Positions 880 through 17,364 of a stretch of DNA of 21,413 bases are shown here, in pieces. A program made the translations under genes and the position numbers. Each line of letters opens with the position of its first letter. Position 1 is the first letter of the stretch. The stretch is from Candidatus Velthaea sp. (GTDB lineage Bacteria > Vulcanimicrobiota > Vulcanimicrobiia > Vulcanimicrobiales > Vulcanimicrobiaceae). The notes beneath the pieces were generated by a model. The model worked only from the letters and a program-made list of their open reading frames with translations. It had not been told where the DNA came from and searched no databases. The stretch spans positions 1-21,413 of the forward strand of contig JBEKHC010000088.1 in the NCBI GenBank assembly GCA_050012475.1, in the 5' to 3' direction.

Positions 880-922
880 TGAAGCGTGGACTACAACCTT
901 TCGCGCCAGCGGCGCGTATGAT
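880..922 (+). promoter_or_regulatory. Putative class II Crp-family promoter: imperfect palindrome TGAAG-cgtgga-CTACA (880-895) plus -10 TATGAT (917-922)
   Basis: One mismatch from TGTAG-N6-CTACA, with 22 nt between TAC and the TAnnnT hexamer. Same geometry as the sites upstream of pufB and bchF. Confidence 0.45.
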
Positions 923-979
923 AATTTCGGACGACCTTTGTGTCGGACAGTTCCGGCCCGGCCGGAAGGAGGTGCGACC

Positions 980-1432
980 TTGGGAGCATTCGCCGCGTTG
1001 ACGATTCCGCTCGACTTGTCACGGCCTGGTGCCGGTACTCTCGCTCTGGCTGCCGCGCAATCGACGGCGGGATCGACCGACGTCGCGATCGATGTTGCGC
1101 ACAACGAGCTCACGATGAAACTCCAAATGCCGGGCAACATCAAATCGATTATGAATCGCCTCAAGGCTGCGGGGTTTGCGATTCCTCCCAAGATCCGCGC
1201 CGTGGTTCCGGTCCGATCGCTAGGACTACCCGATCGACGTCCGGACGTCCCCCATATGCTCGCTCAAATCAATGCCTCGGAGCATGTAAGCGACGCTTCG
1301 CTAGACGGCGCTCAACTGACGGCGATGATCGGTCCGTCGTCCAAGGGCCTGTACCAGATTTACTGGTCGCTCATCCACGCCGGCCTGATGGCTCAGGACA
1401 CGCCGACACTCCCCGCTCTCCGAGGACTCTAG
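980..1432 (+). CDS. Hypothetical protein, probable tandem HMA/ferredoxin-like fold lacking CxxC
   Basis: Strong SD AAGGAGG at 966-972 and TTG start at 980 within ORF 854..1432. Two repeats end in LKAAGF and LIHAGL. Stop codon abuts the desaturase gene. Confidence 0.7.
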   Translation: MGAFAALTIPLDLSRPGAGTLALAAAQSTAGSTDVAIDVAHNELTMKLQMPGNIKSIMNRLKAAGFAIPPKIRAVVPVRSLGLPDRRPDVPHMLAQINASEHVSDASLDGAQLTAMIGPSSKGLYQIYWSLIHAGLMAQDTPTLPALRGL

Positions 1433-1434
1433 TT

Positions 1435-2859
1435 CTGCTCGTCTCGACCCACTCCCCGACTCCGGATGCACCGAGCTACACCGACGACACGCTCATTATC
1501 GGCGGCGGTGTGGCCGGGCTTGCCGCTGCGAAATTTCTCGCCGATGCCGGCCGCCGCGCGACGGTGCTCGAGAAGCGCGGCGTCTTAGGCGGAAAGCTCT
1601 CGTCGTGGCGCGATCGCGACGGCGACATCCTCGAAACGGGCTTACACTCGTTTTTTGGCGGGTACGACTTTCTTCATGAGCTCCTACGGGACGTCGGGAT
1701 CTCGCACCACGTCCTGTGGCAGCCGCATACGCTCACCTTCGCGATGCCGCCGGGGTTTTCCAACCGCGTCGGCGCGCAGGCGATTTTCGAAGAGTTTCAT
1801 TTCGTCGACGCCCCGTCGCCCTTGAACGGCGTCGGCGCGGTGCTCAACGCGAAATACGTTTTCAACGCGTTCGAGAAGCTGCTGTTCGCGACCGGAACGC
1901 TGCCGGTGCTCACCGGCGACCAGTCGTACGTCGAGCGTCAGGACGGCCTCACGTACGCCGATTGGCATCGCCGGCGCAAGATGTCCGAACACATGCTGGC
2001 CACGTTTTTCGCGCCGATGGCCTTGGCATTGAACTTCACTCCGGTCCAGCAGATTTCAGCCGGCGCGATGTTGCGCGTGATGGCGTATTTCGCCAGTTCA
2101 AAGAATGCGAGCCGGGCGGGATTTCTCGACGGGCCGCCGGTCGAACGTCTGATCGATCCGATCGCCGAGTATTGCCGCGAGCGCGGTCAGGTTGTCGAAA
2201 AGGATGCGCGCGTCGGCGAGCTGTTGTTCGAGGGCGGCCGCTGCATCGGCGCGCGCTGCACCGATGGCCGCACGTATTATGCCGCCAACGTCATCATCGC
2301 GACGCCGGTCCACAACGCCGCGCAGCTTTTGCCGGCCGAGATGCTGCGCGACCCGCTCGTCGCCGGCGTCGGAAAACTCACGTCGTCGCCGGTCATCAAC
2401 GGCCACTTCTGGTTCGACCGGCCCGTCTCCAAGCACACGAATTTGATTTTCGGAGCCGGAACGCTGCTGCCGGTTCACGCCGACCTCGGTCAGGCGTCCG
2501 CCGGTTACGAGTGGCCCGGAAAATCGTTCATCGAGGTCTGCATCGCCCCGGCCGACGAGCTCATGAAGCTCGACAACGACGCGGTGATCGATCTGGTGAT
2601 GCGCGATATGCATCGGCTCTATCCGCTTGCGACCAAGGAGTCACTGGTGAAAGCGAAGCTGGTGCGTGTGCCCAAGAGCGTGCACCGCGCGGTACCCGGC
2701 GCGGAACGGTTACGGCCGGGCGCGCGGACTCCGGTCGGCAACCTCTTCTTGGCGGGATGCTACACCAATCATCGGTTCCCGGCCAGCATCGAAGGCGCGA
2801 TCCGTAGCGCCCGGTATGCCGTGGACGGCGTCCTGGAATTCGCCGGTGCTCGGACTTAA
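1435..2859 (+). CDS. crtP: Phytoene desaturase, CrtP/PDS (cyanobacterial/plant type) family FAD-dependent carotene desaturase
   Basis: Rossmann motif IIGGGVAGLAAA. PDS-like motifs GGKLSSWRDRDGDILETGLHSFFGGY, PSPLNG, YVERQDGLT, ALNF, FLDGPPVERL and ASIEGA. Adjacent to crtB. Start uncertain: CTG at 1435 after GAGGA, with no ATG/GTG/TTG between the upstream stop and the FAD motif. CrtP versus CrtQ assignment needs a phylogeny. Confidence 0.78.
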   Translation: MLVSTHSPTPDAPSYTDDTLIIGGGVAGLAAAKFLADAGRRATVLEKRGVLGGKLSSWRDRDGDILETGLHSFFGGYDFLHELLRDVGISHHVLWQPHTLTFAMPPGFSNRVGAQAIFEEFHFVDAPSPLNGVGAVLNAKYVFNAFEKLLFATGTLPVLTGDQSYVERQDGLTYADWHRRRKMSEHMLATFFAPMALALNFTPVQQISAGAMLRVMAYFASSKNASRAGFLDGPPVERLIDPIAEYCRERGQVVEKDARVGELLFEGGRCIGARCTDGRTYYAANVIIATPVHNAAQLLPAEMLRDPLVAGVGKLTSSPVINGHFWFDRPVSKHTNLIFGAGTLLPVHADLGQASAGYEWPGKSFIEVCIAPADELMKLDNDAVIDLVMRDMHRLYPLATKESLVKAKLVRVPKSVHRAVPGAERLRPGARTPVGNLFLAGCYTNHRFPASIEGAIRSARYAVDGVLEFAGART

Positions 2860-3742
2860 ACCAGGACTCGCCCTCGCCCCCGCCGAGGCGCCCGAGAGCT
2901 CGTATCTCGACGACTGCTACCGCCATTGCCGGGACATCGCCCGCAGCAATTCGAAAACGTTTTACCTTAGCTCGCTCTTCTTGTCGCCGGAGAAACGGCG
3001 TGCCGTGTGGGCCGTCTACGCATTTTGCCGGACGGCCGACGACATCGTCGACCAGGTCACGCCGGCCACCGAACGGCTGGCGGCGATCGATTATTGGGAG
3101 CGCGCGCTCCTTGCTGCTTATAATGGTAGTCCTAAGGACCGGATCATGGTCGCGCTCTACGACGCGATCCGCCGCTTCGACATCCCGCTGCAGCCCGCAC
3201 TGGATCTGCTGCGCGGGGCGCGGCTGGATATTACCGTGCGCCGCTACGCGACCTACGACGATTTGCGCGAGTACTGCTATTTGGTCGCCTCGACCGTCGG
3301 TTTGCTGACCTCGCCGATCTTGGGCTACACGTCCGACGCTGCGCTCGACTACGGTGTCGCCTTGGGCCGCGCCATGCAGATGACCAACATCCTGCGCGAC
3401 GTCGGCGAAGACGCGCGGATGGGCCGGATCTATCTGCCGCTCGACGAGATGCAGCAGTTCGGCTACACCGAGTCGTCGCTGTTCGAGGAAGTCGTCGACG
3501 GCGCGTTCGTCGCGCTCATGAAGTTCCAAATCGACCGGGTGCGCCGGCTCTACGCCGAGGCCGAGCCGGGCATCGCGATGCTGGCGCCGGAGTCGCGCTA
3601 CACGGTTCGCCTGGCACTGACCCTGTACCGGCAGATCCTGCGCTCGATCGAGGATAACCGCTACGACGTGTATTCCAAACGCGCGTACGTTCCGTTCCGC
3701 TCGAAGATGCTCGCCGCGATGACGGTCGCCTTCATCCGCTAA
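2846..3742 (+). CDS. crtB: Phytoene synthase
   Basis: Motifs SKTFYLSS, VYAFCRTADDIVD, YCYLVASTVG and LGRAMQMTNILRDVGEDARMGRIYLP. GTG start at 2846 overlaps the end of the desaturase. Confidence 0.93.
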   Translation: MLGLKPGLALAPAEAPESSYLDDCYRHCRDIARSNSKTFYLSSLFLSPEKRRAVWAVYAFCRTADDIVDQVTPATERLAAIDYWERALLAAYNGSPKDRIMVALYDAIRRFDIPLQPALDLLRGARLDITVRRYATYDDLREYCYLVASTVGLLTSPILGYTSDAALDYGVALGRAMQMTNILRDVGEDARMGRIYLPLDEMQQFGYTESSLFEEVVDGAFVALMKFQIDRVRRLYAEAEPGIAMLAPESRYTVRLALTLYRQILRSIEDNRYDVYSKRAYVPFRSKMLAAMTVAFIR

Positions 3743-4085
3743 CGGCGGCTCTCCGAGGCGGCTCTCCAAAAGTCCACGTTCCGCGTATTGCCCGCGCTTC
3801 GCTTCCCGTGGGCCGGGCGCCGGACCCGAACACCCCCGCGGCGCGGTCTAGGATGGCCCAAACGCCCTGCACCGCGGCTCGCGCCGAACGGTACAGGTCC
3901 GGCGCAATGCACCGGACCGTGCTGCTGCTGCGGTGATGCAGCGCACCGCTCGGGTCGGGCCCTCGGGCAGATGCTTTGAGCGTCATGCAGGCGCCATCAC
4001 GGCCCAAGGCCGGCCCCCCATTCGCAAGCGCGCGAACCGGATGTCGGCCAAAGCAACGGGGCACCTGCTAACCAGAGGGCGACGG

Positions 4086-4129
4086 CGTAGTACGCACTAC
4101 ACCGGAGCAGCAGTCGGTTTGTCTATAGT
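4086..4129 (+). promoter_or_regulatory. Putative puf promoter: palindrome cGTAG-tacgca-CTACa (4086-4101, GTA-N8-TAC) plus -10 TATAGT (4124-4129)
   Basis: Perfect GTAG-N6-CTAC inverted repeat with 23 nt between TAC and a near-consensus -10, about 50 nt upstream of pufB. Confidence 0.6.
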
Positions 4130-4181
4130 TCATCAAGAGCCGTGCGCTGTACGGCCGCTCATCACCGCTTAGGGGGTCATC

Positions 4182-4370
4182 GTGGCATCTCTTGATCCAG
4201 CGGTCGGCTCCGTCTATGAGATCGGCAACGATCAAGTACCGGAAGTCTACCGCGACTTTTTCAATAACGCGGACTGGACCGCGCACCGCTTTACGGTCTA
4301 CGGATCGTGGGTTTTCTTCATCATTGCCGTCGTCGCTCACATTTTCGTGTGGGCCTGGCGTCCGTGGTAG
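4182..4370 (+). CDS. pufB: Core light-harvesting antenna beta subunit (Chloroflexota B808-866-like)
   Basis: Single TM helix with AVVAHIFVWAWRPW (BChl-ligating His and WxPW). N-terminal DQVPEVYRDFFNNADWTAH. First gene of the puf operon. Confidence 0.95.
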   Translation: MASLDPAVGSVYEIGNDQVPEVYRDFFNNADWTAHRFTVYGSWVFFIIAVVAHIFVWAWRPW

Positions 4371-4382
4371 GAGGCGAGAAGC

Positions 4383-4568
4383 ATGATCATTCGTCGTCCG
4401 TATAACTTCCGCGCAACGCTCGGCGCCTATGTGCTTGCCGGCGTCGTCGTCGCGTTCCTGATCCACTTCATCGTGCTCTCCTCGCCGAAGTACAACTGGA
4501 TCTTCCCTGCCCAGACCTCCGGAACCGGAACGTCAACCCAAGTCAACCCGGCGCCGGGCGCCAAGTAG
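4383..4568 (+). CDS. pufA: Core light-harvesting antenna alpha subunit
   Basis: VAFLIHFIVLSSPKYNW motif (AxxIH...L.S..YNW), GGAGG upstream, located between pufB and pufL. Confidence 0.95.
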   Translation: MIIRRPYNFRATLGAYVLAGVVVAFLIHFIVLSSPKYNWIFPAQTSGTGTSTQVNPAPGAK

Positions 4569-4596
4569 TCTGCCGTAAAGAAGCGGGGAGAGCGTC

Positions 4597-5418
4597 ATGC
4601 TCGAATTCGAAAGCGCCTATAGGAAGCCGGGAAACACGCTCTTCCGCTCGATCTTAGGAACGGACCCCTTCGATTGGTGGGCGGGCCGTTTCTACGTCGG
4701 ATTGTGGGGCGTCGTTACGATCCTGGCCATCGCGGCCGGCGTGGGCGTGTTGTTCATCGCTGTCGGCCAATACGGTGACTGGGATTTGTGGCGTGCGAAC
4801 GTTCATGCGCCGCTGCGTGAGTATGGACTGGGCGTTGCTCCGTTCATGCAAGGCGGTGCGTGGCAAGCCGTCGTCATCCTGGCGACCGTCGCGTTCGTTT
4901 CCTGGGCGTTACGCGAAGTGGATATCTGCCGCAAACTCGAGATGGGCTACCACGTCCCGCTCATGTTCTCGTTTGCGATTTCGGCGTGGGTGACGCTGCA
5001 GATCATTCGCCCGCTCTGGATGGGCTGCTGGTGCGAAGGCTTCGATCTCAGTTATTCGGGTCACTTGACCTGGGTTTCCAACACGGGCTTCCGCTATCAG
5101 AACTTTTATCTCAATCCGTTTCACGCGTACGCCATTTTAGGATTCTTCCTTACGGCAATGGCGCTCGCGATGCACGGCAGCGCGATCCTCGGGACGTACA
5201 ACACCGACAAAGACCCGGTTCAAGAAGAAGCCAACGTCGACAATTTCTGGCGTGACTACATCGGCTACTCGATCGGCGAGTACGGGATTCACTTCCTGGG
5301 ATTCTGGTTGGCGATTTATACGCTGATCGTCAGCGATCTCTGCATCTTGACATCGGGCACGTTGGTGCAGGACTGGGTCGCTTTCTGGCAATGGCACATA
5401 CCCTTCATGCCGCACTAA
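4597..5418 (+). CDS. pufL: Type II photosynthetic reaction centre L subunit
   Basis: Motifs DPFDWW, FVSWALREVDICRKL, GHLTWVSNTG (His L153), NPFH (L173), AMHGSAIL (L190) and GYSIGEYGIH (Ser L223, His L230). Confidence 0.98.
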   Translation: MLEFESAYRKPGNTLFRSILGTDPFDWWAGRFYVGLWGVVTILAIAAGVGVLFIAVGQYGDWDLWRANVHAPLREYGLGVAPFMQGGAWQAVVILATVAFVSWALREVDICRKLEMGYHVPLMFSFAISAWVTLQIIRPLWMGCWCEGFDLSYSGHLTWVSNTGFRYQNFYLNPFHAYAILGFFLTAMALAMHGSAILGTYNTDKDPVQEEANVDNFWRDYIGYSIGEYGIHFLGFWLAIYTLIVSDLCILTSGTLVQDWVAFWQWHIPFMPH

Positions 5419-5445
5419 ACGAGCAGCAAGGAAAGCGCATATACG

Positions 5446-6459
5446 ATGGCAACTGTCATCAACGAGCAGCCCACTAGCGAGCCGCCGTTCGAGCTCCCTG
5501 GACCAAGCTACTACGACGAGCGTGATATCGTCGGAGTCCGGCTGGGCGTGCCGTTTCGGTTGCCCTTCTTGGGGCTCTTCGGCCTCCCGACGCAGCTCGG
5601 CACGATCTGGCTGGGTTCTTGGGGCGTTGCTTCCGTCGCGCTGTTCATCGCCGGGCTTTTCGTTTTGTTCGCGTCGGGCATCGCGTCGATGAACGGCAAC
5701 GCGCTCGAATACATTCGACATTTCGCCAACGTCCAAGAGCTGCCGCCGGACGGCTTGGGCATGGCGCGCAGCTTGTCGGCCGGCGGCTATTGGGAAATTA
5801 ACATGGTCCTGTGGGCCGGCGCCGTCGTCTGCTGGGCCGGCCGCTGCTGGGAACGTCTGCTGCGCTACAGCTGGCGGCCGTATCTGTTCTTCGCCTGGCT
5901 ATCCGCGATTCTCCTGACGTCCACGATCTGGGTCTTCCGCCCGATCATGATGGGAACGTGGGCTGAGGCGCCGGGCTTGGGTCTCAACGCCGACCTCGAC
6001 TGGGCGCAGAACTTCAGCGTGCTGTGGGGCAACTTGTACTACAATCCCTGGCACCAGCTCGCGATTTTCTTCCTGTTCGGATCGACGATGCTGTGGGGCA
6101 TGCACGGCGCGACGATTCTCGCAACGTCCGCCGAGGGCAGCCACCACGAAGTCGCCGAGATCAAAGACATGCACTCGGGCTCGCACAAGTCGATGCTGTT
6201 CTGGCGCTGGACCATGGGCTGGAACGCCAACCCCAAGACCATTCACGATTGGATCTGGTGGTTCTCGGTCGGTGTCGTGGTGAGCTGCTCGATCGGCATC
6301 ATCAGCACGGGCTGGATCACCAATGACTGGTACGTCTGGGGGGTCGACAACGGAACGGTCGCGCAATACGGGCCGCTGACGCGCGACGCGATCAACCTGC
6401 GCCCGAACCAAGTGAAGCTCGAGCTGCCGGTCTATATGCCGCAGCCGGTGAACCGCTAA
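5446..6459 (+). CDS. pufM: Type II photosynthetic reaction centre M subunit
   Basis: Motifs QLGTIWLG, RPIMMGTWAEAP, GNLYYNPWH (His M202), MHGATILA (M219) and LFWRWTMGWNA...IH (Trp M252, His M266). Confidence 0.98.
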   Translation: MATVINEQPTSEPPFELPGPSYYDERDIVGVRLGVPFRLPFLGLFGLPTQLGTIWLGSWGVASVALFIAGLFVLFASGIASMNGNALEYIRHFANVQELPPDGLGMARSLSAGGYWEINMVLWAGAVVCWAGRCWERLLRYSWRPYLFFAWLSAILLTSTIWVFRPIMMGTWAEAPGLGLNADLDWAQNFSVLWGNLYYNPWHQLAIFFLFGSTMLWGMHGATILATSAEGSHHEVAEIKDMHSGSHKSMLFWRWTMGWNANPKTIHDWIWWFSVGVVVSCSIGIISTGWITNDWYVWGVDNGTVAQYGPLTRDAINLRPNQVKLELPVYMPQPVNR

Positions 6460-7442
6460 TGAACATCAAACGCGTCCTCGGACCCATCGTCATCGTCTGC
6501 GTGCTCTCGTTATCGGGCTTGGTCCAGCCGCTCATCGACAAGGCTCGGGCGGCGGACGGCCCGGGTCAAGTCACCAGCAAGGCGGGTCCGTGGGCTCCCG
6601 GCGGTTCGACTGCCCCCGAAGCGCCGCATCTCTCATCGTCGATCGGCACCCAGGACGGCGGACAGATCCCGCCCGAGGCGCTCAAGGGCGTCGGCCCCGT
6701 CGATCAAAGCGCGCCGCTGGATTTCAGCGATCAGCCGGCCGCGGTCCCGCATCAATACGTCGGCGGTCGCACCTACAACGTGCAAGTCCTCAAACAGTAC
6801 TCGTACGTGCAGCTGCTGGGCCAGATGAACCAGTACACGGTGGCACTGGGCGTGCAGTGCACGTACTGCCACAACGTGCAGAACTTCGCGTACGACACGC
6901 CAACAAAGAGGGTTGCGCGGACGATGCAGATTATGTCCAACGAAGTTGGACGGTCGTGGGTCGATCCGATCAAGAAAGATTATCCGAACTACGCGGTCAA
7001 TGGTGCCGTGGGATGCGTAACGTGTCATCGCGGCGCTCCGCGAATGGGTGTTTCATGGAACATCGTGCCGGTGCAATTCTTGAACTACCGCTATAAATCG
7101 ACCAAGCAGGTCGGCTATGTGGTGAACTCGATGTACTCGGTGGCTCGGTCGCTGGGCGTGAACTGCCTGTTCTGCCACAACACGGCCGACTTCCTGACGC
7201 TTCAATACTATCCGACGAACCAGATCGCACATCGCATGTGGGCGATGGTCGATAAGATCAACCACGAGTATCTGCCGGCGAACATCAAGGCCGTTACGTG
7301 CTATACCTGTCACCAAGGTGCGAAGTGGCCGCAGGCGCTCGTGACCGCGGGCCTGGATCAGGCTCCCGCCGATGCGGTCGCCGCCCATCCGGAAGTTCAT
7401 GAGAATCCCGGAGCCCATCTAGCGTCGGGAGCGTTGCCCTGA
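6459..7442 (+). CDS. pufC: Reaction-centre-bound tetraheme cytochrome c subunit
   Basis: Four CxxCH motifs (CTYCH, CVTCH, CLFCH, CYTCH), N-terminal hydrophobic signal/anchor, and TAATG overlap with the pufM stop. Confidence 0.95.
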   Translation: MNIKRVLGPIVIVCVLSLSGLVQPLIDKARAADGPGQVTSKAGPWAPGGSTAPEAPHLSSSIGTQDGGQIPPEALKGVGPVDQSAPLDFSDQPAAVPHQYVGGRTYNVQVLKQYSYVQLLGQMNQYTVALGVQCTYCHNVQNFAYDTPTKRVARTMQIMSNEVGRSWVDPIKKDYPNYAVNGAVGCVTCHRGAPRMGVSWNIVPVQFLNYRYKSTKQVGYVVNSMYSVARSLGVNCLFCHNTADFLTLQYYPTNQIAHRMWAMVDKINHEYLPANIKAVTCYTCHQGAKWPQALVTAGLDQAPADAVAAHPEVHENPGAHLASGALP

Positions 7443-8123
7443 TTGGACCTCTTTTGGAGCTTGCCGGACTCGCGAGATTTCGCCGGCCTCACTGCCCCGC
7501 TCGATGAACTCTTCGGCGCTGCGCAATCGCGGAAGTATGAATCCGGTGCGTCGGTGTCCGATCCCGAGTTTGCACCGGAACGTGCGTTCCGGTGCGTCTC
7601 AGGCACGATCAAGGTAACGAAGCTCCTCGCGAGCGGACGCGAGATCCTCATCACGATCTTACAGACGGGCTCCGTCTGGAGCGATCGCGCGGTCCTCAAC
7701 GGCTACTGGCGCGACGTCTTCCTCGAAGCGATGGAGCCCAGCGAGATCGTCTCGGTCGACGCCGCCGCCTTCGAGCGCGTCGTGCGCTCATCGCCGGATC
7801 TGCTGGCCAAGTTCATGCTGCGCATCTCCGAGCAAGTCTCGGATGCCCTCACGCTGCTTGACGATTTCCGCGGCCGCGACGTTGCCTCGCGGCTGGCTCG
7901 GGTCCTCGTGCGCTTCTCCAAACAATACGGCGTGCCGACCGAACGCGGCGTCCGCATCGAACTCCCGGTCACCCACCAAGACCTCGCCAACATGATCGGC
8001 ACTGCGCGCGAAACAGTCTCTCGTAACATGGCCCGTTTCCGCCAGCAGGGCTACGTCAAAGACGGGCACGCCGCCACCCTCGAAATCCTCAACCTCGACT
8101 CGCTCGAAGCGCTCATCGTCTAG
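7443..8123 (+). CDS. Crp/Fnr family transcriptional regulator
   Basis: cNMP-type beta-barrel (SGTIKVTK...SGREILITILQTG) and HTH LPVTHQDLANMIGTARETVSR. TTG start immediately after the pufC stop. Confidence 0.93.
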   Translation: MDLFWSLPDSRDFAGLTAPLDELFGAAQSRKYESGASVSDPEFAPERAFRCVSGTIKVTKLLASGREILITILQTGSVWSDRAVLNGYWRDVFLEAMEPSEIVSVDAAAFERVVRSSPDLLAKFMLRISEQVSDALTLLDDFRGRDVASRLARVLVRFSKQYGVPTERGVRIELPVTHQDLANMIGTARETVSRNMARFRQQGYVKDGHAATLEILNLDSLEALIV

Positions 8124-8167
8124 CCGGTCAAGAAAGAATCGTCCCCTGCTTGCCCGCAGCGAGCCGG

Positions 8168-8208
8168 AAAAAAACGGCGGCACCCTTTCGGGGGTGCCGT
8201 TTGCTTGT
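8168..8208 (+). terminator. Rho-independent, probably bidirectional, terminator of the puf-crp operon
   Basis: Hairpin CGGCACCCT-TTCG-GGGGTGCCG (8178-8199) followed by TTTGCTTGT and preceded by an A7 tract. Confidence 0.8.
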
Positions 8209-8302
8209 GCGTCACGAAGGTCGGTGGCCAGCCGGGAGGGGGTAATTGGGTTGCCGGGCGTCCCCCGCAACCGAACGAGCCCCTCCCGCTCCCCACAGGC
8301 CG

Positions 8303-8345
8303 GGTGACGACTATCACCGTGCCTAATTCTCCGGATGCCTACGAT
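8303..8345 (+). promoter_or_regulatory. Putative class II Crp promoter of bchFCX: GGTGA-cgacta-TCACC (8303-8318) plus -10 TACGAT (8340-8345)
   Basis: Perfect GTGA-N6-TCAC Crp-box core, centred at about -41.5 if transcription starts near 8352. Confidence 0.65.
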
Positions 8346-8371
8346 AACCAACGGAGGGAGAACGTCCGCAC

Positions 8372-8839
8372 GTGGCATACGGGGATTCCGAACAAATGGT
8401 CGCTCGGCGAGCCGCGAGCGTATGGACCAAAATCCATCCGATTTTCGCCCTCGGCCAACTGCTCGCGTTCTTCGTGAGCGTCGGCTTCTTGATCGGTTAC
8501 TTCCGCGGGGCCGTTTCCATGGAGGCCGTGCACCAATCGGTGCTGGTCAAAGTCGCGCTGATGTTCGGTGCGATCATCACCGGCGCGCTGTGGGAGAAGG
8601 ACGTCTTCGGCCAATATTGGTTTGCCCCGGAGTTCCTAGCCGAAGACACGATGACCCTCAACGTGTTCATCTTGCACATCTCCTATCTCGGACTGGCGGC
8701 CGCGAATCCGGAGAACATCACCGTACAGATCGGCATGCTGATCGTAGCGTACGGCGTGTACATCGCGAACGTCGCTCAATACGTGGTGCGTACAGCGGTG
8801 CTGGGAAAGCACGTCGCCGTTCGGGTGCGCTCGCGGTGA
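8372..8839 (+). CDS. bchF: 3-vinyl (bacterio)chlorophyllide hydratase
   Basis: Motifs RRAASVWT, ITGALWEKDVFGQYWFAPEFLAED and AYGVYIANVAQY. Small membrane protein. Start is GTG 8372 or ATG 8396. Confidence 0.93.
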   Translation: MAYGDSEQMVARRAASVWTKIHPIFALGQLLAFFVSVGFLIGYFRGAVSMEAVHQSVLVKVALMFGAIITGALWEKDVFGQYWFAPEFLAEDTMTLNVFILHISYLGLAAANPENITVQIGMLIVAYGVYIANVAQYVVRTAVLGKHVAVRVRSR

Positions 8840-9795
8840 GCGGCGCCGTGCAGGCGGTCGTGTTTGCCGAGGCCGGTCAGCTCGATTTCCGTCCGGTGAC
8901 GCTGCGTGCGGCGGCGGCCGACGAAGTCGTGGTCGACACGCGCTTTTCGTCGATCTCCGCGGGCACGGAACGGCTGCTGTTCGATGGGCGCTTGCCGGCG
9001 ATTCCGCATTTGTGCTATCCGCTGATTCCGGGCTACGAAGCGGTTGGGGTCGTGCTGCAGGTCGGTGCCGACGTCACCGACGTACACGTGGGCGATGAAG
9101 TGTTCGTGGGCGGAAGCATGTGCTTCACCGACGTCTCGGCCGCTTTTGGCGGGCAGGCGTCGCGGCTGATCAAGAAAGCCGCCCAGGTCGTTCCACTGCA
9201 CGGGATCCCGCTCGCGCATGCTCCGTTGCTCGCGCTCGCGGCGACGAGTTTGCACGGCGTGCGCCGGCTTGGCGATGTGCGCGGGAAACGCGTCGGCGTC
9301 GTCGGCATGGGTGCGATCGGACAGTTCGCCGCGCGCTTCCTCGCCGCACTCGAACCGGCGGAGCTCTATGAAGTGGACACGAATCCTGCCCGGCTCGGCC
9401 ACGTTCGCGGCGCGATTTCCATCGATGCGTCGCAAACGACGCTTGCCGAGGCTGCCGGCGCGCCGTTGGACTGCGTGATCGAAGCCACCGGAAAATCCGA
9501 GATGATCGGGGCGTGCGCGAAAGCGCTTCGGCTCGGCGGTTCGATCGTGCTGCTTTCGTACTACGATACACTGACGACGCCGTTCGTCGATCTCTTCACC
9601 AAAGAGGCGACGCTGCTGGTCGCGCGCGAGTGGAGCCACCCCGACCTGCTGGCGGCACGCGACATGATCGCCGACGGCCGCGTCGACGTCGCCGACCTGG
9701 CTCAAAGCGCTTACCCGATCGCGCACTACGAAGCGGCCTACAAGACCGCATTCGAGGATCCATCGATACTGAAGGTGATTCTGCAATGGGCGTAA
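8836..9795 (+). CDS. bchC: 3-hydroxyethyl bacteriochlorophyllide a dehydrogenase
   Basis: MDR family motifs SSISAGTERLL and YPLIPGYEAVG, Rossmann VVGMGAIG, and KEATLLVAREW. GTG start overlaps the bchF stop (GTGA). Confidence 0.94.
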   Translation: MSGAVQAVVFAEAGQLDFRPVTLRAAAADEVVVDTRFSSISAGTERLLFDGRLPAIPHLCYPLIPGYEAVGVVLQVGADVTDVHVGDEVFVGGSMCFTDVSAAFGGQASRLIKKAAQVVPLHGIPLAHAPLLALAATSLHGVRRLGDVRGKRVGVVGMGAIGQFAARFLAALEPAELYEVDTNPARLGHVRGAISIDASQTTLAEAAGAPLDCVIEATGKSEMIGACAKALRLGGSIVLLSYYDTLTTPFVDLFTKEATLLVAREWSHPDLLAARDMIADGRVDVADLAQSAYPIAHYEAAYKTAFEDPSILKVILQWA

Positions 9796-10814
9796 GCAAA
9801 AACTCCACCGTCGCCATCTACGGCAAGGGCGGTGCCGGAAAGTCTTTTCTCACCAGCATGACGGCGAAGACGCTGACCGAACGCGGCTTCAACACGTTGC
9901 AGATGGGCTGCGATCCCAAGCACGACAGCGTGGTCACGCATTTCGGCGGCGCGCTGATCCCGACGGTCCTCGGCACTTGGGCGCAGTACGAAAAAGAAGG
10001 CCGCGCCGACGATCTCGCTCCCGAACACATCATCTTTAAGGGCAACGGCGTCTATTGCATCGAGCTGGGCGGCCCGGAGTCGGCGCGCGGCTGCGGCGGA
10101 CGCGGCATCACCTTCGGCTTCTCACTGCTCGAAAAGTGGGGCTTGTCGGAGTGGAACTTCGATTACATGCTGCTCGACTTTCTCGGCGACGTCGTTTGTG
10201 GCGGCTTCGGCACGCCGATCGCGCGTTCGATGGCCGATAAGCTCATCATCGTCTGCAGCAACGAAGGCCAGTCGATGTACGCCGCCAACAACATCGCCTC
10301 CGCGGTCCGTTACTTCGCCGAGCAGGGCGGGAAAACGCGCTGCCTGGGCCTCGTCGTCAACAAAGACGACGGCAGCGGCAAAGCGCAAGCCATGGCAAAG
10401 TGGCTGGGCATTCCGGTGATCGCGTCGATGCCGCTCATCCCGCAAGACGAGGTCGTGATCGACGGCGTTCCCAACGAAGCCGTTCGCAGCGCCGTCGACA
10501 ACGTCATCGCGGCGATCGACGATCTCGACGCGGTCGTCCCCAACAAAGTCGACTTCGTTCAATTCATGATGCACCTCTCGGGCAACGCTGCCGAGATGGA
10601 CGGCACGGCCGTCACCGCCGACGAACTCTGGTCGCTGCCCGAAGTTGTGCCCAAAGCCAAAAAAATCCAGCGCGAACTCGTCCTCGCCGGCATCCCCAAC
10701 GGCGGACGCGCCGATCATCGCTACATCGAAGCGGAAGGCGACGGCGAGAAAGTCCTTGGACCGACGATCGTATCCGTCGGCGGAGGGAATGTGCCGGCTG
10801 CCGACTGGGGCTGA
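9786..10814 (+). CDS. bchX: Chlorophyllide a reductase iron protein subunit X
   Basis: NifH-like motifs YGKGGAGKS, GCDPKHDS, ELGGPESARGCGGRGI and DFLGDVVCGGFGTPIARSMA. ATG at 9786 overlaps the end of bchC. Confidence 0.96.
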   Translation: MGVSKNSTVAIYGKGGAGKSFLTSMTAKTLTERGFNTLQMGCDPKHDSVVTHFGGALIPTVLGTWAQYEKEGRADDLAPEHIIFKGNGVYCIELGGPESARGCGGRGITFGFSLLEKWGLSEWNFDYMLLDFLGDVVCGGFGTPIARSMADKLIIVCSNEGQSMYAANNIASAVRYFAEQGGKTRCLGLVVNKDDGSGKAQAMAKWLGIPVIASMPLIPQDEVVIDGVPNEAVRSAVDNVIAAIDDLDAVVPNKVDFVQFMMHLSGNAAEMDGTAVTADELWSLPEVVPKAKKIQRELVLAGIPNGGRADHRYIEAEGDGEKVLGPTIVSVGGGNVPAADWG

Positions 10815-10815
10815 T

Positions 10816-10973
10816 CGTGGGAGAGCGGGGAGGCGACATTGGTGGGGCGGGGACGCCCGCGATTTTACATCCATGTAAAATCGCTACTGCCAAAAAATCT
10901 GCTCCCGCCCTCCGGGCTCCGCAGATTTGTTTGAGCCCCCGCACCACCCATGCCGCCTCCCCGCTCAGCCACG
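10816..10973. repeat. Branched inverted-repeat element (MITE/REP-like element or structured RNA)
   Basis: 37-bp outer arms 10816-10852 and 10937-10973 match at 32/37 positions. They enclose a perfect hairpin GCGATTTTACAT-CC-ATGTAAAATCGC (10859-10884) and a second hairpin CAAAAAATCTGC...GCAGATTTGTTTG (10891-10933). Confidence 0.8.
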
Positions 10974-11274
10974 CCGCCAGCGAGTCGGCAGCCGATGGAA
11001 GAGTGGCAGAGTCGGTGGTGTTTCGGGCTCGGAGCAGAAACACGCGCTTGATGCCTTTTTCTTTTTTAAGACAAAGTGGTACATCGAAGTTTGCAGCCTT
11101 CCCCCGCATCGAAATGCGAAGCTACGCGTGCGCGGCGATTGAGCGCTTCGAGATGAACCGGGCGATGCGCGCGGGTCTCCGGTTGGCGCCTGCAGCTCCC
11201 CTCCACCAGCGGCCCAACGCGGTCATCCGCAACAACGAACCAACATCAGAACGCCACGAGCGTTCGGGGTTTTC

Positions 11275-12600
11275 ATGAGTAAACAGGCTTCTTCGATGTG
11301 CCCGGCGTTCGGGGCTGTGCGGAATTTGTTGCGTATGGAAGATGCGATGCCCATCGTTATTTCCAGCGGCGACGGATGTTTGTATGGGCACACCTTCGTG
11401 GCGCATTTTTATGTGGCGAACCGGCCGATCTTTTCGCCCGGGGTGAGTTCGGAGATTTGGGCCAAGGGCTCGGTGTTCGATGAGCTCAAGCTCATGGTGC
11501 ACGAAATGGCGGAGAAACATCAGCCGTCGATCATTCCGATTTGTTCGCTGTGCGTGTCGGATACCGTGGGCTTGCCGTTCGATCTGCTGCCCAAGCAGAT
11601 CGGGCACACCGAGGTCATTTATGTACCGCTGCCGGCGTACAGCGTTCATACGCATTCGCGAGCGAAAGACATCGTCGTCGATTCGCTGGTTTGGCGGTTG
11701 CCGCCGCAGCGCAAAACGCGTGCGGGCGTGAACGTGATCGGAGAGCTGTTTCCCAGCGATCCGATTCATATCGACGAAGTGCTGCGGCGCATCGGAACGC
11801 ACGTGAATACGACGGTGCCCGGTCCGCGCTGGTCGGACTATGTCGCGATGGTGGACGGGGCGCTCAATGCGCCGGTCCATCCGTTTTACTCCGAGAGCGT
11901 CAAGCGGATGAAGATGAAGCAGGGTCTGCCGTTCATCGAGGGCGCACCGGTCGGCATCGATGGAACCTATGCGTGGATCCGCGGCGTCGGTGAGGCGCTC
12001 AAGCTGAATCCGGCGACGGTGAACGCCGTTGCCGCCGAGGAGCGCGATAAGGTGATCGCGGCGATGGCCGATTATCCGCTACACGGGCTCACGTTCATGG
12101 TGGCCGGCTATGAAGGGCATGAGTTTCTGCTCGTGCGGCTGCTGATCGAAGCGGGGGCCAAGGTGCCGTTTCTGTCGACCGCCGTGAGCTCGAATCCGTT
12201 GGCGCGCGAAGAGGAAGCTTGGTTGCGCGAGCACGGCTGCACGGTGTTGTACGGCGCGAATTTCGACGACGAGATCGGGGCACTCGAAGATCATCCCTAC
12301 GATTGCGTGATCGGGACGACGCCGTTGTGCGCGCACGCCAAGGAGCTCGGCATTCCGTCGATTTACTATACGAACGCGATGGCGACGCGTTCGCTCATGT
12401 TTGCGGCCGGTGCCAGCGATATCTTGTCGCTGATGCTTTCGACCTATCGCAGCAAGCAGCGGTATCACAAGATTGCGAGTTTCTTTAGCGAGACGGGGAC
12501 GCCGCAGCGGAGCTACTCGTCGTGGGCGCCCAAGATCGATTTGACCGAGCATCTGCTTGCGAATGGCGCGTTTGCGCCTGCCGACGGAGGAACGCCGTGA
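11275..12600 (+). CDS. bchY: Chlorophyllide a reductase subunit Y
   Basis: Three cluster Cys in SMCPAFG, GCLYG and SLCVSD, plus HSRAKD, GYEGHEFLLVRLLIEAGA and GIPSIYYTN. Confidence 0.96.
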   Translation: MSKQASSMCPAFGAVRNLLRMEDAMPIVISSGDGCLYGHTFVAHFYVANRPIFSPGVSSEIWAKGSVFDELKLMVHEMAEKHQPSIIPICSLCVSDTVGLPFDLLPKQIGHTEVIYVPLPAYSVHTHSRAKDIVVDSLVWRLPPQRKTRAGVNVIGELFPSDPIHIDEVLRRIGTHVNTTVPGPRWSDYVAMVDGALNAPVHPFYSESVKRMKMKQGLPFIEGAPVGIDGTYAWIRGVGEALKLNPATVNAVAAEERDKVIAAMADYPLHGLTFMVAGYEGHEFLLVRLLIEAGAKVPFLSTAVSSNPLAREEEAWLREHGCTVLYGANFDDEIGALEDHPYDCVIGTTPLCAHAKELGIPSIYYTNAMATRSLMFAAGASDILSLMLSTYRSKQRYHKIASFFSETGTPQRSYSSWAPKIDLTEHLLANGAFAPADGGTP

Positions 12601-12634: not shown

Positions 12635-14203
12635 ATGGGTACACCCAAAGAACTCGAGAGCGCCGTCGTCAACACGGCGATTCGCAAGCGGGTGACCGAT
12701 CTCGATCACGCCGGCGGCGATACCGGCGGGATGCAAGTGTTCGCCTCGTTCAAGGATGCCAACGTCGTGCTCGACGGGCCGGTGGGCTGTCACGTGATGC
12801 CCGCCGTCGCCGTCATCAACTATACCGACAGCGTGCCGTATTTGCAAAACGTGACGTGTTCGGAGTTGTCGGAGAACGAAGTCACCATCGCCGGGACGCT
12901 CGGCGCGCTCAAAGAAAAAGTGGCGCGGGCCGGTGTCGACGGGCGCCAGGTGTTCATCGTTTCAACGCCGATGTCGGAGCTGATCGGGGCGTCGTGGACC
13001 ACCATGGATGCGGACGTGAAGGGGTCGGCGCTGTTCTTCGACAGCCACTCGCTCGATGACGACGAGTGGAAGTCGCGCGATCGGGCGTTACTGTTTTTGT
13101 GGGAGCATCGCGAGCACTTCGTTCGGCCGGCCGGCGCGGCGCCCCATCCGCCCAGGACTCGGCCACGCGTCAACATCATCGGACCGACGTACGGGAATTT
13201 CAACTCGTACAGCGATCTGCACGAAATCAAGCGGCTCGTCGCCGGGATCGGCGCCGAACTCAATTGTGTGTATCCGTTCGAGGCGCACACCTACGACACG
13301 CCGCATTTGCGCGACGCCGACGCGAGCATCGTCATGTATGCGGAGTACGGGAAATCGCTGGCGCGCGAGGTCGGCTTGCCGACGTTCTTCGCTCCGATCG
13401 GACTCGAGCCGACGACCCTGTTTTTGCAGGGACTCGGGGATGCGCTCGGGCTGCGAGCCGAAGCCGACGCGTTCATCGCGCGCGAGAAGAAGACGACGCT
13501 CGCGGCGTGGCAAGACATTTGGAAATCGACGCACAGCGATTTCTTTGCCAACGCCCCGATCGCGATCGTCGCTCCGCCGACGTATAAGGACGGTCTCGAG
13601 GGCTACTTGGGCGGCGAGCTGGGCCTGCCCGTTGTCTTCAGCGCGTACCGCACCGGCGCCGAGAGCACACCCAACGAAGAGGTCCGAGTCGCGCTGCGCG
13701 AACTGAGCCCGTCGCCGATGATGGTGTTCGGATCGATCAACGAACGCATGATCATCGCGCAAGAAAAGCTGCCGGCGCTGTTCATGCAATCGTCGTTCCC
13801 GGGCGCCGTCGTGCGGCGCGCGACCGGAACGCCGTATATGGGATACGCCGGGGCGGTCTGGCTGCTCCAAGTGGCGTGCGAAGGACTGTTCGACGTGCTG
13901 TTCGCGAACTTGCCGACCTCGGCGGTGCCGCCGCTGCGCGCCGAAGCGCCGACCGCCGAGCTGTTGGCCTCGGCACCCGGCGTCGTCGCTGAGAGCGGAA
14001 AGGGCCGCAACAGCGTCATTGCCTGGACGCCCGAAGCCAAGCAGCTGACGGAAGTGACGCTGAAACGCGTTCCGTTTTTCGTGCGCGTTTCGGTGAACAA
14101 GAAATTGCGTGCCGAAGCCGAGCAGCTCGCGCGCGAGCGCGGCTCGGATGTCGACCGGGCGGTGATCGAAGCGATCACGGCGCGTTACGCGCCGGGGCGT
14201 TAG
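12635..14203 (+). CDS. bchZ: Chlorophyllide a reductase subunit Z
   Basis: Motifs DLDHAGG, VVLDGPVGC, INYTD, VNIIGPTYGNFNSYSDLHEIKRLV and TGTPYMGYAGAVWLLQ, with a C-terminal PCP_red-type domain (WTPEA...VPFFVR). ATG at 12635. Confidence 0.96.
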   Translation: MGTPKELESAVVNTAIRKRVTDLDHAGGDTGGMQVFASFKDANVVLDGPVGCHVMPAVAVINYTDSVPYLQNVTCSELSENEVTIAGTLGALKEKVARAGVDGRQVFIVSTPMSELIGASWTTMDADVKGSALFFDSHSLDDDEWKSRDRALLFLWEHREHFVRPAGAAPHPPRTRPRVNIIGPTYGNFNSYSDLHEIKRLVAGIGAELNCVYPFEAHTYDTPHLRDADASIVMYAEYGKSLAREVGLPTFFAPIGLEPTTLFLQGLGDALGLRAEADAFIAREKKTTLAAWQDIWKSTHSDFFANAPIAIVAPPTYKDGLEGYLGGELGLPVVFSAYRTGAESTPNEEVRVALRELSPSPMMVFGSINERMIIAQEKLPALFMQSSFPGAVVRRATGTPYMGYAGAVWLLQVACEGLFDVLFANLPTSAVPPLRAEAPTAELLASAPGVVAESGKGRNSVIAWTPEAKQLTEVTLKRVPFFVRVSVNKKLRAEAEQLARERGSDVDRAVIEAITARYAPGR

Positions 14204-14226: not shown

Positions 14227-15036
14227 GTGCTGCTGGCAGCGGCGCGATTGCGAATGGGCGGACGGCGGCTGCGGGCCTTGGCCGCCGGCGACGGGAGCGC
14301 GGTGCGCGAGTTCGTTACCGCCGACTCGGCGTTGCGGCTGGCCGAGGCGCGACGTGACGCGCGCGCCGATGCGGCAATGCTCGAGCGCCTCTCCGCGCGC
14401 GTGGTCCCGCTTCGCAGCGCCGAATACCCGGCCGGACTGCGCGACCTCCGGATGCCGCCGGCGTTTCTGTGCGTGCGCGGCACGTTGCCCGCGGACGGCG
14501 TCGCAATCGTCGGGGCGCGGGATGCCAGCAGCGCGGCGTGCCGCTTTGCCTTCGATCTCGCCCAGGCGCTGGGGCGTGCGGTCGTGAGCGGATTGGCACG
14601 CGGCGTCGATACGGCGGCTCACCGCGGCGCGCTGGCGGCGGGGTTGCCGCAGATTGCGTACGTCGGGACCGGCGTCGCGCGAACGTACCCGCCCGAAAAT
14701 GCCCAGCTCGCCGACGAGATCATCGCGAGCGGCGGCGCGATCGCTTCCGAGCGCCTGCCCAACGATGCGGTGACGCGTTGGGCACTCACCCAACGCGATC
14801 GATTGCAGGCCGCTCACGCCGCTGCGGTCGTATTGATCGAAAGCGAAGCGGAGGGCGGCGCGATGCACACACTGCGCTTCGCGCGGGAATTGGGACGCCG
14901 GCGTTTTGTTTGCGATCGTCCAACCACGGGAAACCGTGCGGCGGCTGCCGACGGAGCGACCCTCTTGCCCGCTGAGGCCGTCGCCGCCGCTGCCGCCATC
15001 ATCGCTTCTCTCCCGCACCAGGAGCCCGCAGGTTGA
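14227..15036 (+). CDS. dprA: DNA-processing protein DprA/Smf family
   Basis: Motifs YPAGLRDLRMPPAFLCVRG, VAIVGAR, VVSGLARGVDTAAHRGAL and YPPEN. Short form lacking the C-terminal domain. Confidence 0.88.
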   Translation: MLLAAARLRMGGRRLRALAAGDGSAVREFVTADSALRLAEARRDARADAAMLERLSARVVPLRSAEYPAGLRDLRMPPAFLCVRGTLPADGVAIVGARDASSAACRFAFDLAQALGRAVVSGLARGVDTAAHRGALAAGLPQIAYVGTGVARTYPPENAQLADEIIASGGAIASERLPNDAVTRWALTQRDRLQAAHAAAVVLIESEAEGGAMHTLRFARELGRRRFVCDRPTTGNRAAAADGATLLPAEAVAAAAAIIASLPHQEPAG

Positions 15037-15428
15037 GCGCCTTCCAAGCATACGATCTCGATAAGGTCCAGCTCCTTCGCAACGCCGATTTGGATTCCGC
15101 GCCGCTCGGAGTGATCGTCGTCGACCGCAACGGGAAAATTCTCGAGTACAACGCGTACGAACGCTCGTTGGCCCATATGGGCGACCGCGACGTCACCGGC
15201 CGAAACTTCTTCACCGACGTCGCTCCCTGTACGGCGATCCGCGACTTTCAGGGACGCTTTGGCGAATTCCTCAACTCCGAAGAGACGAGCATCGAGCCGT
15301 TCGAGTTCATTTTCGCGTTTCCGCACGGGCCCGAACGGGTGTCCGTCGTATTTGTCCGCCTTGCAGACGACCGGGAACGCGCAACGATTTGCGTGATCCG
15401 CACGGAGGTAGCCGACTTATCGACCTGA
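15033..15428 (+). CDS. pyp: Photoactive yellow protein (PAS fold, p-coumarate chromophore)
   Basis: LDSAPLGVIVVD..G.ILEYNAYE and GRNFFTDVAPCT give Tyr42, Glu46 and Cys69 equivalents in exact register with H. halophila PYP. TTG start overlaps the dprA stop. Confidence 0.88.
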   Translation: MSAFQAYDLDKVQLLRNADLDSAPLGVIVVDRNGKILEYNAYERSLAHMGDRDVTGRNFFTDVAPCTAIRDFQGRFGEFLNSEETSIEPFEFIFAFPHGPERVSVVFVRLADDRERATICVIRTEVADLST

Positions 15429-16708: not shown

Positions 16709-17364
16709 TGCCGAATGTTTTGGGCGCCGACGCCATCGCGGCCGAACTGGCTCGCCGGCCGGGCTGGACGTACGACGGCGCGGTCATCACGCGCACCTTC
16801 GATCGGGGCGACTTCAACGGATCGATCGCTTTCGTCAACGCCGTCGCTGCGGCAGCCAATCGCCTCGATCATCATCCCGACATCGCGCTGGCCTGGAGCG
16901 AAGTGACGATCTCGACGTCGTCGCACGACGTCAAGGGAATCTCCCCGCGCGATCTGGCCCTCATCGACGCCATCGAGGCACTTTGACATGCTCCCCGGCC
17001 GCAAGGACGGGGATTCGGTTGGGCGAACCAAGGGGCCGCGCCGCTCACGGAGCGCAACGCTTGCTGCTCTCGCAGAGAATCCGCACCTATTCGGCCCTTC
17101 GGAATCTTCAGCCCAGCGCACGAAGGCTTCGTGCGCTGAACGATTCTCTTCCAGATGTGGTGACAGCGCGAGCACCCGCGCGAGGTAGTACGCAGATCGA
17201 CGCGCAGCAGCAGGCCGCCCTGGTTTTGGCTGCGCCGGCTGAGGGCCCGCTTTCGCCGTCACCTTGGTGCCGGGATTGGCGAGCGTGCCTTTTGCCGAAG
17301 CCGCCGTGATGTTGACGACGCGCAGGTCTTCCTGGATCGCGTTCGCGTGGCTCTTCCGAATCAT
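16705..17364 (-). CDS. Possible hypothetical protein or gene remnant; only about 17090-17364 looks coding
   Basis: The 5' half has gene-like codon usage and fills an otherwise empty gap. The 3' half runs antisense through phhB. No recognised motif. Confidence 0.25.
   Translation of the reverse strand: MIRKSHANAIQEDLRVVNITAASAKGTLANPGTKVTAKAGPQPAQPKPGRPAAARRSAYYLARVLALSPHLEENRSAHEAFVRWAEDSEGPNRCGFSARAASVALRERRGPLVRPTESPSLRPGSMSKCLDGVDEGQIARGDSLDVVRRRRDRHFAPGQRDVGMMIEAIGCRSDGVDESDRSVEVAPIEGARDDRAVVRPARPASQFGRDGVGAQNIRH
16708..16986 (+). CDS. phhB: Pterin-4-alpha-carbinolamine dehydratase
   Basis: Motifs LARRPGW, AFVNAVAAAANRLDHHPDI and SHDVKGISPRDL. TAATG overlap with the hemL stop. Confidence 0.9.
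   Translation: MPNVLGADAIAAELARRPGWTYDGAVITRTFDRGDFNGSIAFVNAVAAAANRLDHHPDIALAWSEVTISTSSHDVKGISPRDLALIDAIEAL

Follow-up and report, generated by a model that had tools for sequence, protein, structure and literature searches.

The window analysed here is the whole of a 21,413-nucleotide contig of Candidatus Velthaea sp. (JBEKHC010000088.1; contig C88 of genome G000, whose contamination is 5.3%), and it carries, in order, mrp (- strand), a 150-residue open reading frame (ORF), a phytoene-desaturase-like gene, crtB, pufBALMC, a Crp-family gene and bchFCXYZ. We found that the carotenoid (crt), reaction-centre (puf) and bacteriochlorophyll (bchF) promoters of this stretch each carry a Crp-type site in class II position, that these sites belong to two classes that sort by operon and are conserved among relatives, and that two Crp-family genes are restricted to genomes with pufL. 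One of these genes, encoding what we call the window Crp, lies in the stretch itself; the other, encoded elsewhere in the genome, specifies a longer protein (long Crp or globin-Crp). Comparison of their recognition helices with the sites makes it probable that the window Crp acts on the bacteriochlorophyll operons through class B sites and that the long Crp acts on the puf, antenna and crt operons through class A sites.

Class II sites of two classes at photosynthesis promoters

The features on which this reading rests are as follows.

880..895, + strand: class A site of the orf-crt promoter, asymmetric T-GAA-N8-TAC-A, from sequence and conservation; the globin-Crp, whose gene lies elsewhere in the genome, is predicted to act here
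917..922, + strand: TATGAT, predicted crt -10 box; +1 would fall at 929
4086..4101, + strand: class A site of the puf promoter, GTA-N8-TAC (NtcA-type), from sequence and conservation
4124..4129, + strand: TATAGT, predicted puf -10 box; +1 would fall at 4136
7443..8123, + strand: window Crp, 226 residues; its start codon abuts the pufC stop, and the helix R189-E-T-V-S-R194 lies at 8007-8024
8303..8318, + strand: class B site of the bchF promoter, GGTGA-N6-TCACC, from sequence and conservation
8340..8345, + strand: TACGAT, predicted bchF -10 box; +1 would fall at 8352

All three sites and their -10 boxes, as listed by the initial annotation, were confirmed in the sequence. The sites read TGAAG-CGTGGA-CTACA (880-895), CGTAG-TACGCA-CTACA (4086-4101) and GGTGA-CGACTA-TCACC (8303-8318). 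Their description as palindromes holds for puf and bchF; the crt site is asymmetric and overlaps the start of mrp. This asymmetry is consistent among genomes, following ATGA(A/C/G)GY-N4-RCTACA. In the window, the T of the mrp start codon supplies the first base of the site, the crt -10 box overlaps the predicted mrp promoter, and three copies of the asymmetric site elsewhere (two in G081, one in G096) have no mrp start codon. At this head-to-head overlap, one bound protein could both activate crt and dampen mrp.

The proposed class II, Crp-family geometry was borne out. The ends of the 16-mers lie 21 (crt), 22 (puf) and 21 (bchF) nucleotides before the -10 box and, with +1 set 7 nucleotides past that box, the site centres fall at -41.5, -42.5 and -41.5, respectively. 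The -35 hexamers of the three promoters are poor (CAACCT, ACCGGA and CCGTGC). Each promoter therefore combines a site near -41.5 of its inferred start with a TAnnnT box and a poor -35 element, as class II promoters do, and the spacing of 21 to 23 nucleotides is conserved. The sequence CTACA was ruled out as a -35 element, since it ends 21 to 22 rather than 17 nucleotides before the -10 box.

The spacing is also exceptional within genome G000, where TAnnnT occurs with a frequency of 0.0028 per position. Among the 49 RGTGA-N6-TCACS cores (strand-counted), four are followed by TAnnnT at 21 to 22 nucleotides against about 0.27 expected from that frequency; between 12 and 33 nucleotides, the remaining 20 spacings together give two cases. 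All four spaced cores precede bch genes (bchF, bchH, bchL and bchM-acsF). Likewise, 13 GTARY-N4-RCTAC cores yield two with TAnnnT at 21 to 23 nucleotides (about 0.11 expected), and both precede light-harvesting beta genes. A looser class A pattern finds exactly three sites in the whole genome, namely those of crt, pufB and a second pufB-like antenna pair (C103).

The position of the bchH start codon provides further support. In 7/7 loci (C54:21322-21373 of G000, which is L040, plus six others) the bchH ATG lies 6 to 7 nucleotides past the -10 box and thus at the predicted +1, leaving no space for a ribosome-binding site; a leaderless transcript is predicted, and this supports the class II geometry. 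A leaderless bchN is also predicted in G027.

We then compared 161 genomes of the family that are at least 85% complete, 22 with pufL and 139 without. The unpublished genomes G024, G031 and G117, together with G022, G032, G048 and G059 of the first sample, entered only the background counts for non-phototrophs. In orthologous promoters all three window sites are retained with variable spacer sequence. The photosynthesis-wide regulon suggested by the initial annotation was supported, and further sites stand at bchH, bchL, bchM-acsF and bchN.

Class B sites, GGTGA-N6-TCACC, occur upstream of bchF/C, bchM-acsF, bchH, bchL and bchN. The genomes with pufL hold 78 matches to the pattern (at least two in 22/22, at least three in 18/22), and the 139 others hold 39 (at least one in 37, at least two in 2, at least three in 0). 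The site is present in 26 of the 28 loci of the window Crp and its close relatives, the two misses being loci without bchF or bchC in the flank, and in 0/52 loci of distant Crp genes. Stand-alone bchN promoters carry it in 5/5 cases, with a weaker -10 box; in G000 a fifth palindrome precedes bchN, likewise with a weaker -10 box. Neither a class A nor a class B site was found at the bchY and bchI/D promoters of G000.

Class A sites, GTA(G/A)Y-N4-RCTAC, lie upstream of puf and of the second antenna pair, with the GAA variant at crt. A first, loose pattern mixed two classes of site; the strict pattern was built on the first nine pufM genomes and then tried on 13 new ones. Because a reversed-pattern control of these searches was high in all genomes, counts in non-phototrophs and the position of the sites were used instead. 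The strict pattern occurs in 21/22 genomes with pufL versus 16/139 others, and it stands immediately upstream of pufB in 11 of the 13 genomes outside the derivation set. The exceptions are G063, whose contig stops within pufB, and G064, whose class A site is on the opposite strand before a long-Crp paralogue; by eye, G064 has a TGTAT-N6-CTACA variant with a CATCAT box toward pufB. Separately, the crt leader of nine genomes holds a second promoter with GTGC-N6-TCAC, which is not present in the window.

The two classes sort by operon. Among the promoters examined, class B was seen at no puf promoter and class A at no main bch promoter.

Two Crp-family genes of phototrophic genomes

About a dozen Crp-family proteins are encoded by G000, and two of them follow phototrophy. 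The window Crp gene is present in 22/22 genomes with pufL and 0/139 others, and the long Crp gene in 21/22 and 0/139; the single miss, G115, has its bchM-type site 134 nucleotides from a contig start. Both genes track pufL even within genera g25 (1/11 phototrophic) and g51 (2/4). PF00027 and PF13545 score above their cut-offs in both proteins, which places them in the Crp/Fnr superfamily, and neither passes the NtcA, CRP, FixK, FnrL or LdrP models.

Relatives of the window Crp form a set of 28 loci at 57 to 96% identity, the next best standing at about 30%, and the closest named ones are labelled Candidatus Velthaea sp. and Vulcanimicrobiota. The gene follows pufC in 21 of these loci, crtB in four and crtB-long Crp in one, and has no identified upstream neighbour in two; the placement of this regulator in the puf operon thus applies to 21/28 loci, while in five it comes after crtB. 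The recognition helix TARETVSR, which is CRP-type, is found in 118/120 homologues. Glu190 occupies the position of the NtcA valine, and the protein scores 77 bits on the NtcA model TIGR03697 and 55 bits on the NCBIfam CRP model (cut-off 266). The Fe-S cysteines of FNR and FnrL are missing, with one Cys in 102/121 sequences and four in 1/121, and the FnrL model gives 36 bits. The LdrP model NF052518 matched neither the window Crp nor the long Crp at E <= 1e-8. A pocket segment, WSDRAVLNGYW, is nearly invariant and departs from the cAMP-binding motif of CRP.

Two observations on this gene stand apart. A second copy at 82% identity (C19:35155-35829 of G000, L039) lies outside any photosynthesis cluster, has no counterpart in the other genomes of the 22-genome set and may be a contaminant or a duplicate. 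Where the gene follows crtB (G007, G017, G033 and G096), AGGGCT-N10-CGGTCCAA is conserved by eye about 80 nucleotides upstream of it.

L035:9700-9800, L037:9420-9470 and L038:3990-4030: AGGGCT-N10-CGGTCCAA loci, by eye

The long Crp, a protein of 361 residues encoded directly upstream of bchM, is split between contigs C20 and C52 in G000 and was analysed from the intact orthologue of G001. Its helix NRVTVTR, present in 112/120 homologues, contains RVTVTR, which is the helix of NtcA. The residues that correspond to the base contacts of NtcA are R320, V321 and R325 in 111/111 aligned sequences and T324 in 110/111. The score on TIGR03697 is 72 bits versus a cut-off of 245, and the protein is thus not an NtcA orthologue by that model. 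Like the window Crp, it is without the FnrL cysteines; a CxC pair is present (C222 in 102/111, C224 in 109/111).

The first 140 residues of the long Crp are modelled as a globin-like bundle with a predicted local distance difference test score of 88.6. This model reaches VIA Z scores of 11.4 to 11.5 to RsbR-N, stressosome and AfGcHK domains, about 11 also to phycobiliprotein domains, and 11 to 11.6 over 125 to 133 residues to globins, values that, as the tool warns, helical bundles can reach. Foldseek gave no match at E <= 0.001 for this domain alone (E 0.04-0.3) and Crp domains only for the whole protein. The RsbRD_N signal is weak (4/17 members, best E 0.0076), with an Atlas lead of 0.75 to RsbRD_N-like clusters. 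Among 1.84 billion representatives the N-terminus found 14 matches and no close relative outside its own family. Position 70, the proximal position as judged by eye without residue-level superposition, is Gln in 108/111 sequences, and His40 is present in 107/111.

In G007, G017, G033, G064, G081 and G096, puf modules that are duplicated or divergent are accompanied by additional long-Crp paralogues, whereas the window Crp gene remains single. In four of these genomes (G007, G017, G033 and G081; L121:5141-12416, L126:2661-14108, L131-L132 and L155) the paralogues accompany a second Mg-chelatase set and extra bchF paralogues, and the second sets adjoin divergent, often duplicated puf operons. 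On TIGR02025 the second BchH of G007 reaches 1364 bits and the main BchH 594. Such a set is possibly a second, acquired photosynthesis module. In G003 (L033, G003:C266, 8585-10681) pufM and pufB appear frameshifted in the assembly.

Proposed pairing of regulators with sites and the alternatives

We infer binding, activation and the pairing of protein with site, the pairing from the helix code. NtcA contacts bases through R186, V187, T190 and R191, and a V187E mutant, which carries the CRP residue, no longer binds the NtcA box, according to a portion of PMC11850224. Because the long Crp has the NtcA helix RVTVTR and the NtcA box is GTA-N8-TAC, the long Crp was assigned to class A. The RETVSR helix of the window Crp is CRP-type and the CRP consensus is TGTGA-N6-TCACA (as quoted in an excerpt of PMC7662524), so the window Crp was assigned to class B; where NtcA has its valine this protein has Glu, the substitution that ends binding of NtcA to its box.

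On this basis, the photosynthesis genes of phototrophic Eremiobacterota would be expressed from activator-dependent class II promoters in two regulons. The window Crp would bind GGTGA-N6-TCACC and activate bchF/C-X(YZ), bchM-acsF, bchH, bchL and bchN-B. The long Crp would bind GTA(G/A)Y-N4-RCTAC and activate the reaction-centre and antenna operons, and would reach the carotenoid operon through the GAA variant.

The two regulators may also act as a cascade, given that the last gene of the puf operon encodes the window Crp. The globin-Crp would sense a signal and turn on puf together with the window Crp, which would then turn on pigment synthesis, with the outcome that pigment supply tracks apoprotein synthesis. 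Since the window Crp gene lies downstream of a class A promoter in most genomes, and in G033 has a class A site of its own, bch expression would need the long Crp in two steps. We consider the chances of such a cascade to be evenly balanced. A doubtful extension is that the globin-Crp holds a tetrapyrrole-like cofactor, senses light, oxygen or pigment, and acts as a master switch through an NtcA-type box and then through the second Crp.

Several points weigh against the two-regulator assignment or its cascade. The genomes are kin, and the counts given above consequently overstate independence. One hybrid site, TGTGC-N6-CTACA, was seen in G130, and in G017 and G033 mixed GTAAG/GCTAC sites stand upstream of bchF paralogues. 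Nor does the helix code hold in every case: the CRP homologue TTHB099 of Thermus binds TGT(A/g)-N8-(T/c)ACA (part of PMC7662524), and a further family protein, the C48-type Crp, has the helix RETVSL and accompanies GTAAG-N4-CTTAC class II sites, one of them before its own gene. For the cascade, no class A site stands directly before the window Crp gene in G007, G017, G096 or G064 or before the C19 copy of G000, and the near-invariant WSDRAVLNGYW suggests that the window Crp may bind an effector of its own. RNA was available from one metatranscriptome (share 0.06) as contigs from related strains, which cover parts of crt, puf and bch and are blind to starts and strand. One of these contigs begins at 4122, ahead of the start predicted for puf, although contigs cannot show starts; another begins at 961, and the RNA contigs were not counted as support.

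The initial annotation preferred one activator, the window Crp, reading both GTGA and GTAG half-sites at all photosynthesis promoters. The presence of this gene in all 22 genomes with pufL, adjoining puf and bchF, agrees with that view, as do the hybrid site of G130, the GTGC-N6-TCAC element in the crt leader of nine genomes and the acceptance by TTHB099 of A or G at the position in question. However, about 20 genomes show strict sorting of the site classes by operon, no targets would remain for the phototroph-restricted Crp whose helix is exactly that of NtcA, and Glu at the NtcA Val position abolishes binding to the NtcA box. We therefore consider a single activator improbable, and the fallback of the same annotation, that two regulators are possible, proved the better reading, in which the GTAG sites fit the long Crp.

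Two regulators with the assignment reversed, or a heterodimer at asymmetric sites such as that of crt, would agree with the consistent asymmetry of the crt site and with the finding that each of the two Crp genes is in most cases closely followed by a class B promoter (that of bchF and that of bchM, respectively). This arrangement means that neighbourhood cannot decide the assignment; the helix identities with NtcA and CRP point the opposite way, and the asymmetric form is a known NtcA variant, which renders this alternative quite improbable.

It is very improbable that the GTAG sites are targets of the C48-type Crp, with puf and crt drawn into a general regulon and the long Crp serving another role. 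That protein occurs in 20/22 phototrophs and 35/139 other genomes, a GTAAG-N4-CTTAC class II site precedes the gene that encodes it, and mixed half-sites exist. Nevertheless, it was not found in G084 (93% complete) or G103 (97%), both of which have a class A site at puf; half-site position 5 is, by eye, G in its sites and C or T in the puf and crt sites; and class A is not enriched in the non-phototrophs that carry it (3/35 vs 13/104). The GTAAG-N4-CTTAC sites form a separate, probably autoregulated regulon. In G000 they stand at C48:11219 (the C48-type Crp gene) and C126:3896-3911 (a DUF305 gene), and they recur in non-phototrophs.

Highly improbable is the view that the palindromes are repressor operators, or are retained for RNA structure or for the overlap of mrp start and promoter: the crt site does cover the mrp start downstream of the predicted mrp promoter, where a bound protein could repress mrp, but the constant 21 to 23 nucleotides to TAnnnT, the poor -35 elements, the persistence without mrp and the leaderless bchH fit class II activation.

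The two-regulator reading was also compared with known systems. NtcA promoters of cyanobacteria carry GTA-N8-TAC at -41.5, 22 nucleotides before TAN3T, and GAA-N8-TAC, which matches the crt variant, is among the strongest chromatin immunoprecipitation sites (sections of PMC3898017). The long Crp resembles NtcA in these sites, about 22 nucleotides before the box, and in its identical helix, but it is non-cyanobacterial, has an extra 140-residue domain with a predicted globin fold, and has puf and crt rather than nitrogen genes as predicted targets. The window Crp shares the R-E-T-V-x-R helix and a TGTGA-N6-TCACA-type site with CRP of Escherichia coli and GlxR of actinobacteria, whereas its outer bases are GGTGA...TCACC and its regulon apparently comprises only about five bch operons.

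Passages of PMC4263372 describe FnrL and CrpK of Rhodobacter sphaeroides as having common binding determinants, with 6-10% of targets photosynthetic, and acting beside PrrA and PpsR. These are likewise Crp-family photosynthesis activators, and CrpK, as far as those passages go, is without the FnrL cysteines, as are both proteins here. In contrast, two distinct motifs split the operons in the present genomes and the genes are phototroph-only. Replacement of PpsR/RegA-type control, as the initial annotation proposed, agrees with scores far below the curated cut-offs for PpsR (TIGR02040) and RegA/PrrA (NF033791) in 5/5 genomes.

The LitR-LdrP system of Thermus (TTHB099/TT_P0055) has a TGTA-N8-TACA-like motif and a second cascade tier proposed for carotenoid genes, LdrP being a cAMP-independent Crp protein; its first tier, unlike that proposed here, is a B12 MerR repressor, and direct crtB binding is disputed (all from part of PMC7662524). 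The B12-cap domain PF02607 occurs in 5/5 genomes, in long frames that are methionine synthase-like and as a short match on C39 of G000; a LitR/AerR-type input may exist. The predicted globin fold of the long Crp is shared with the non-haem globin RsbR-N, globin-coupled sensors and photoglobin, but the long Crp fuses it to Crp; passages of the photoglobin paper (PMC8717448) mention neither Crp nor cyclic nucleotide monophosphates.

Crp-family control of photosynthesis genes (FnrL, CrpK) and carotenoid genes (LdrP) is already known. The present case differs in its two dedicated regulators, predicted to act through different motifs on pigment synthesis and on apoprotein and carotenoid genes, respectively, and in a non-cyanobacterial globin-Crp that has the helix of NtcA. 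Light increases bchM 2.9-fold and pufL 1.9-fold in Vulcanimicrobium alpinum (part of PMC9758169), which fits coordinated control and does not discriminate between readings. The words promoter, FNR and Crp are absent from the main text of that paper, and Crp is absent from its text supplements; the main text of bioRxiv 10.1101/534180 is without the terms searched, and the available part of a review (PMC12654162) remarks only on scattered photosynthesis genes. In a search that covered sources outside subscription journals, we found no account of this control or of photosynthesis transcription in the phylum.

Remaining features of the window and significance

The other features of the window are listed here.

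878-880, - strand: mrp start codon, divergent from crt
946-918, - strand: predicted sigma70-like mrp promoter, overlapping the crt -10 box
980..1432, + strand: conserved ORF of 150 residues, first gene after the crt promoter; homologues in photosynthesis clusters
1435..2859, + strand: carotenoid (phytoene-desaturase-like) flavin oxidoreductase; PF01593; TIGR02731 333.7 bits, below cut-off
2900..3742, + strand: crtB, phytoene synthase, start approximate; PF00494
4182-4370, 4383-4568, 4597-5418, 5446-6459 and 6459-7442, + strand: pufB, pufA, pufL, pufM and pufC; PF00556, PF00124, PF02276
8178..8199: G+C hairpin after crp and before the bchF promoter, preceded by an A run and followed by a T-rich run
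8372-8839, 8836-9795, 9786-10814, 11275-12600 and ~12635-14203, + strand: bchF, bchC, bchX, bchY and bchZ; PF07284, PF08240, PF00142, PF00148

The 150-residue ORF matched nothing in Pfam, NCBIfam or Atlas searches, and it keeps a class A promoter even where relocated from crt (G027, G081 and G096). The desaturase start is uncertain and is probably the CTG at 1435: there is no in-frame ATG, GTG or TTG from the upstream stop to the Rossmann motif, and GAGGA stands 8 nucleotides before this codon. By eye, G033 and G017 also have CTG at the position. The hairpin was called as terminator-like on the - strand, folds on the + strand as well, and is likely the end of the puf-crp transcript.

The top NCBIfam match of bchX is TIGR02016. 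The gap between bchX and bchY (10815-11274, 460 nucleotides) has tracts of low complexity and lacks class A and class B sites, and it ranges from about 50 to 550 nucleotides in relatives. After bchZ, dprA-like, PAS, hemL and pterin dehydratase genes (14227-16986) show synteny in several relatives. By eye, the long Crp gene itself has no class A or B site upstream. In genomes with a second Mg-chelatase set, a class A promoter just upstream of puf precedes two tandem membrane proteins of about 95 residues with the motif PYYYGGYPGPP, sometimes followed by two genes for proteins of about 600 residues (L120:9475-10191, L121:14143-14860 and L155:13594-14324).

Photosynthesis genes of this phylum are scattered and stand without the purple-bacterial regulators. 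If the doubtful master-switch extension held, photosynthesis would be controlled wholly by two dedicated Crp activators, independent of PpsR, RegA and FnrL. On the two-regulator reading, a CRP-type and an NtcA-type helix would form a rare natural pair that splits one pathway. It is now possible to name the two regulator genes, the two motifs, some eight promoters in each genome as likely targets and predicted starts to the exact base, and the cultured V. alpinum encodes both proteins (WPS_26220, window Crp, 77%; WPS_24930, long Crp, 68%). The globin-Crp would be a new architecture, whose ligand may explain the balance of pigment and apoprotein in an aerobic anoxygenic phototroph. Together, the sites and regulators predict how photosynthesis is switched on in the little-known soil phylum Eremiobacterota (Vulcanimicrobiota).

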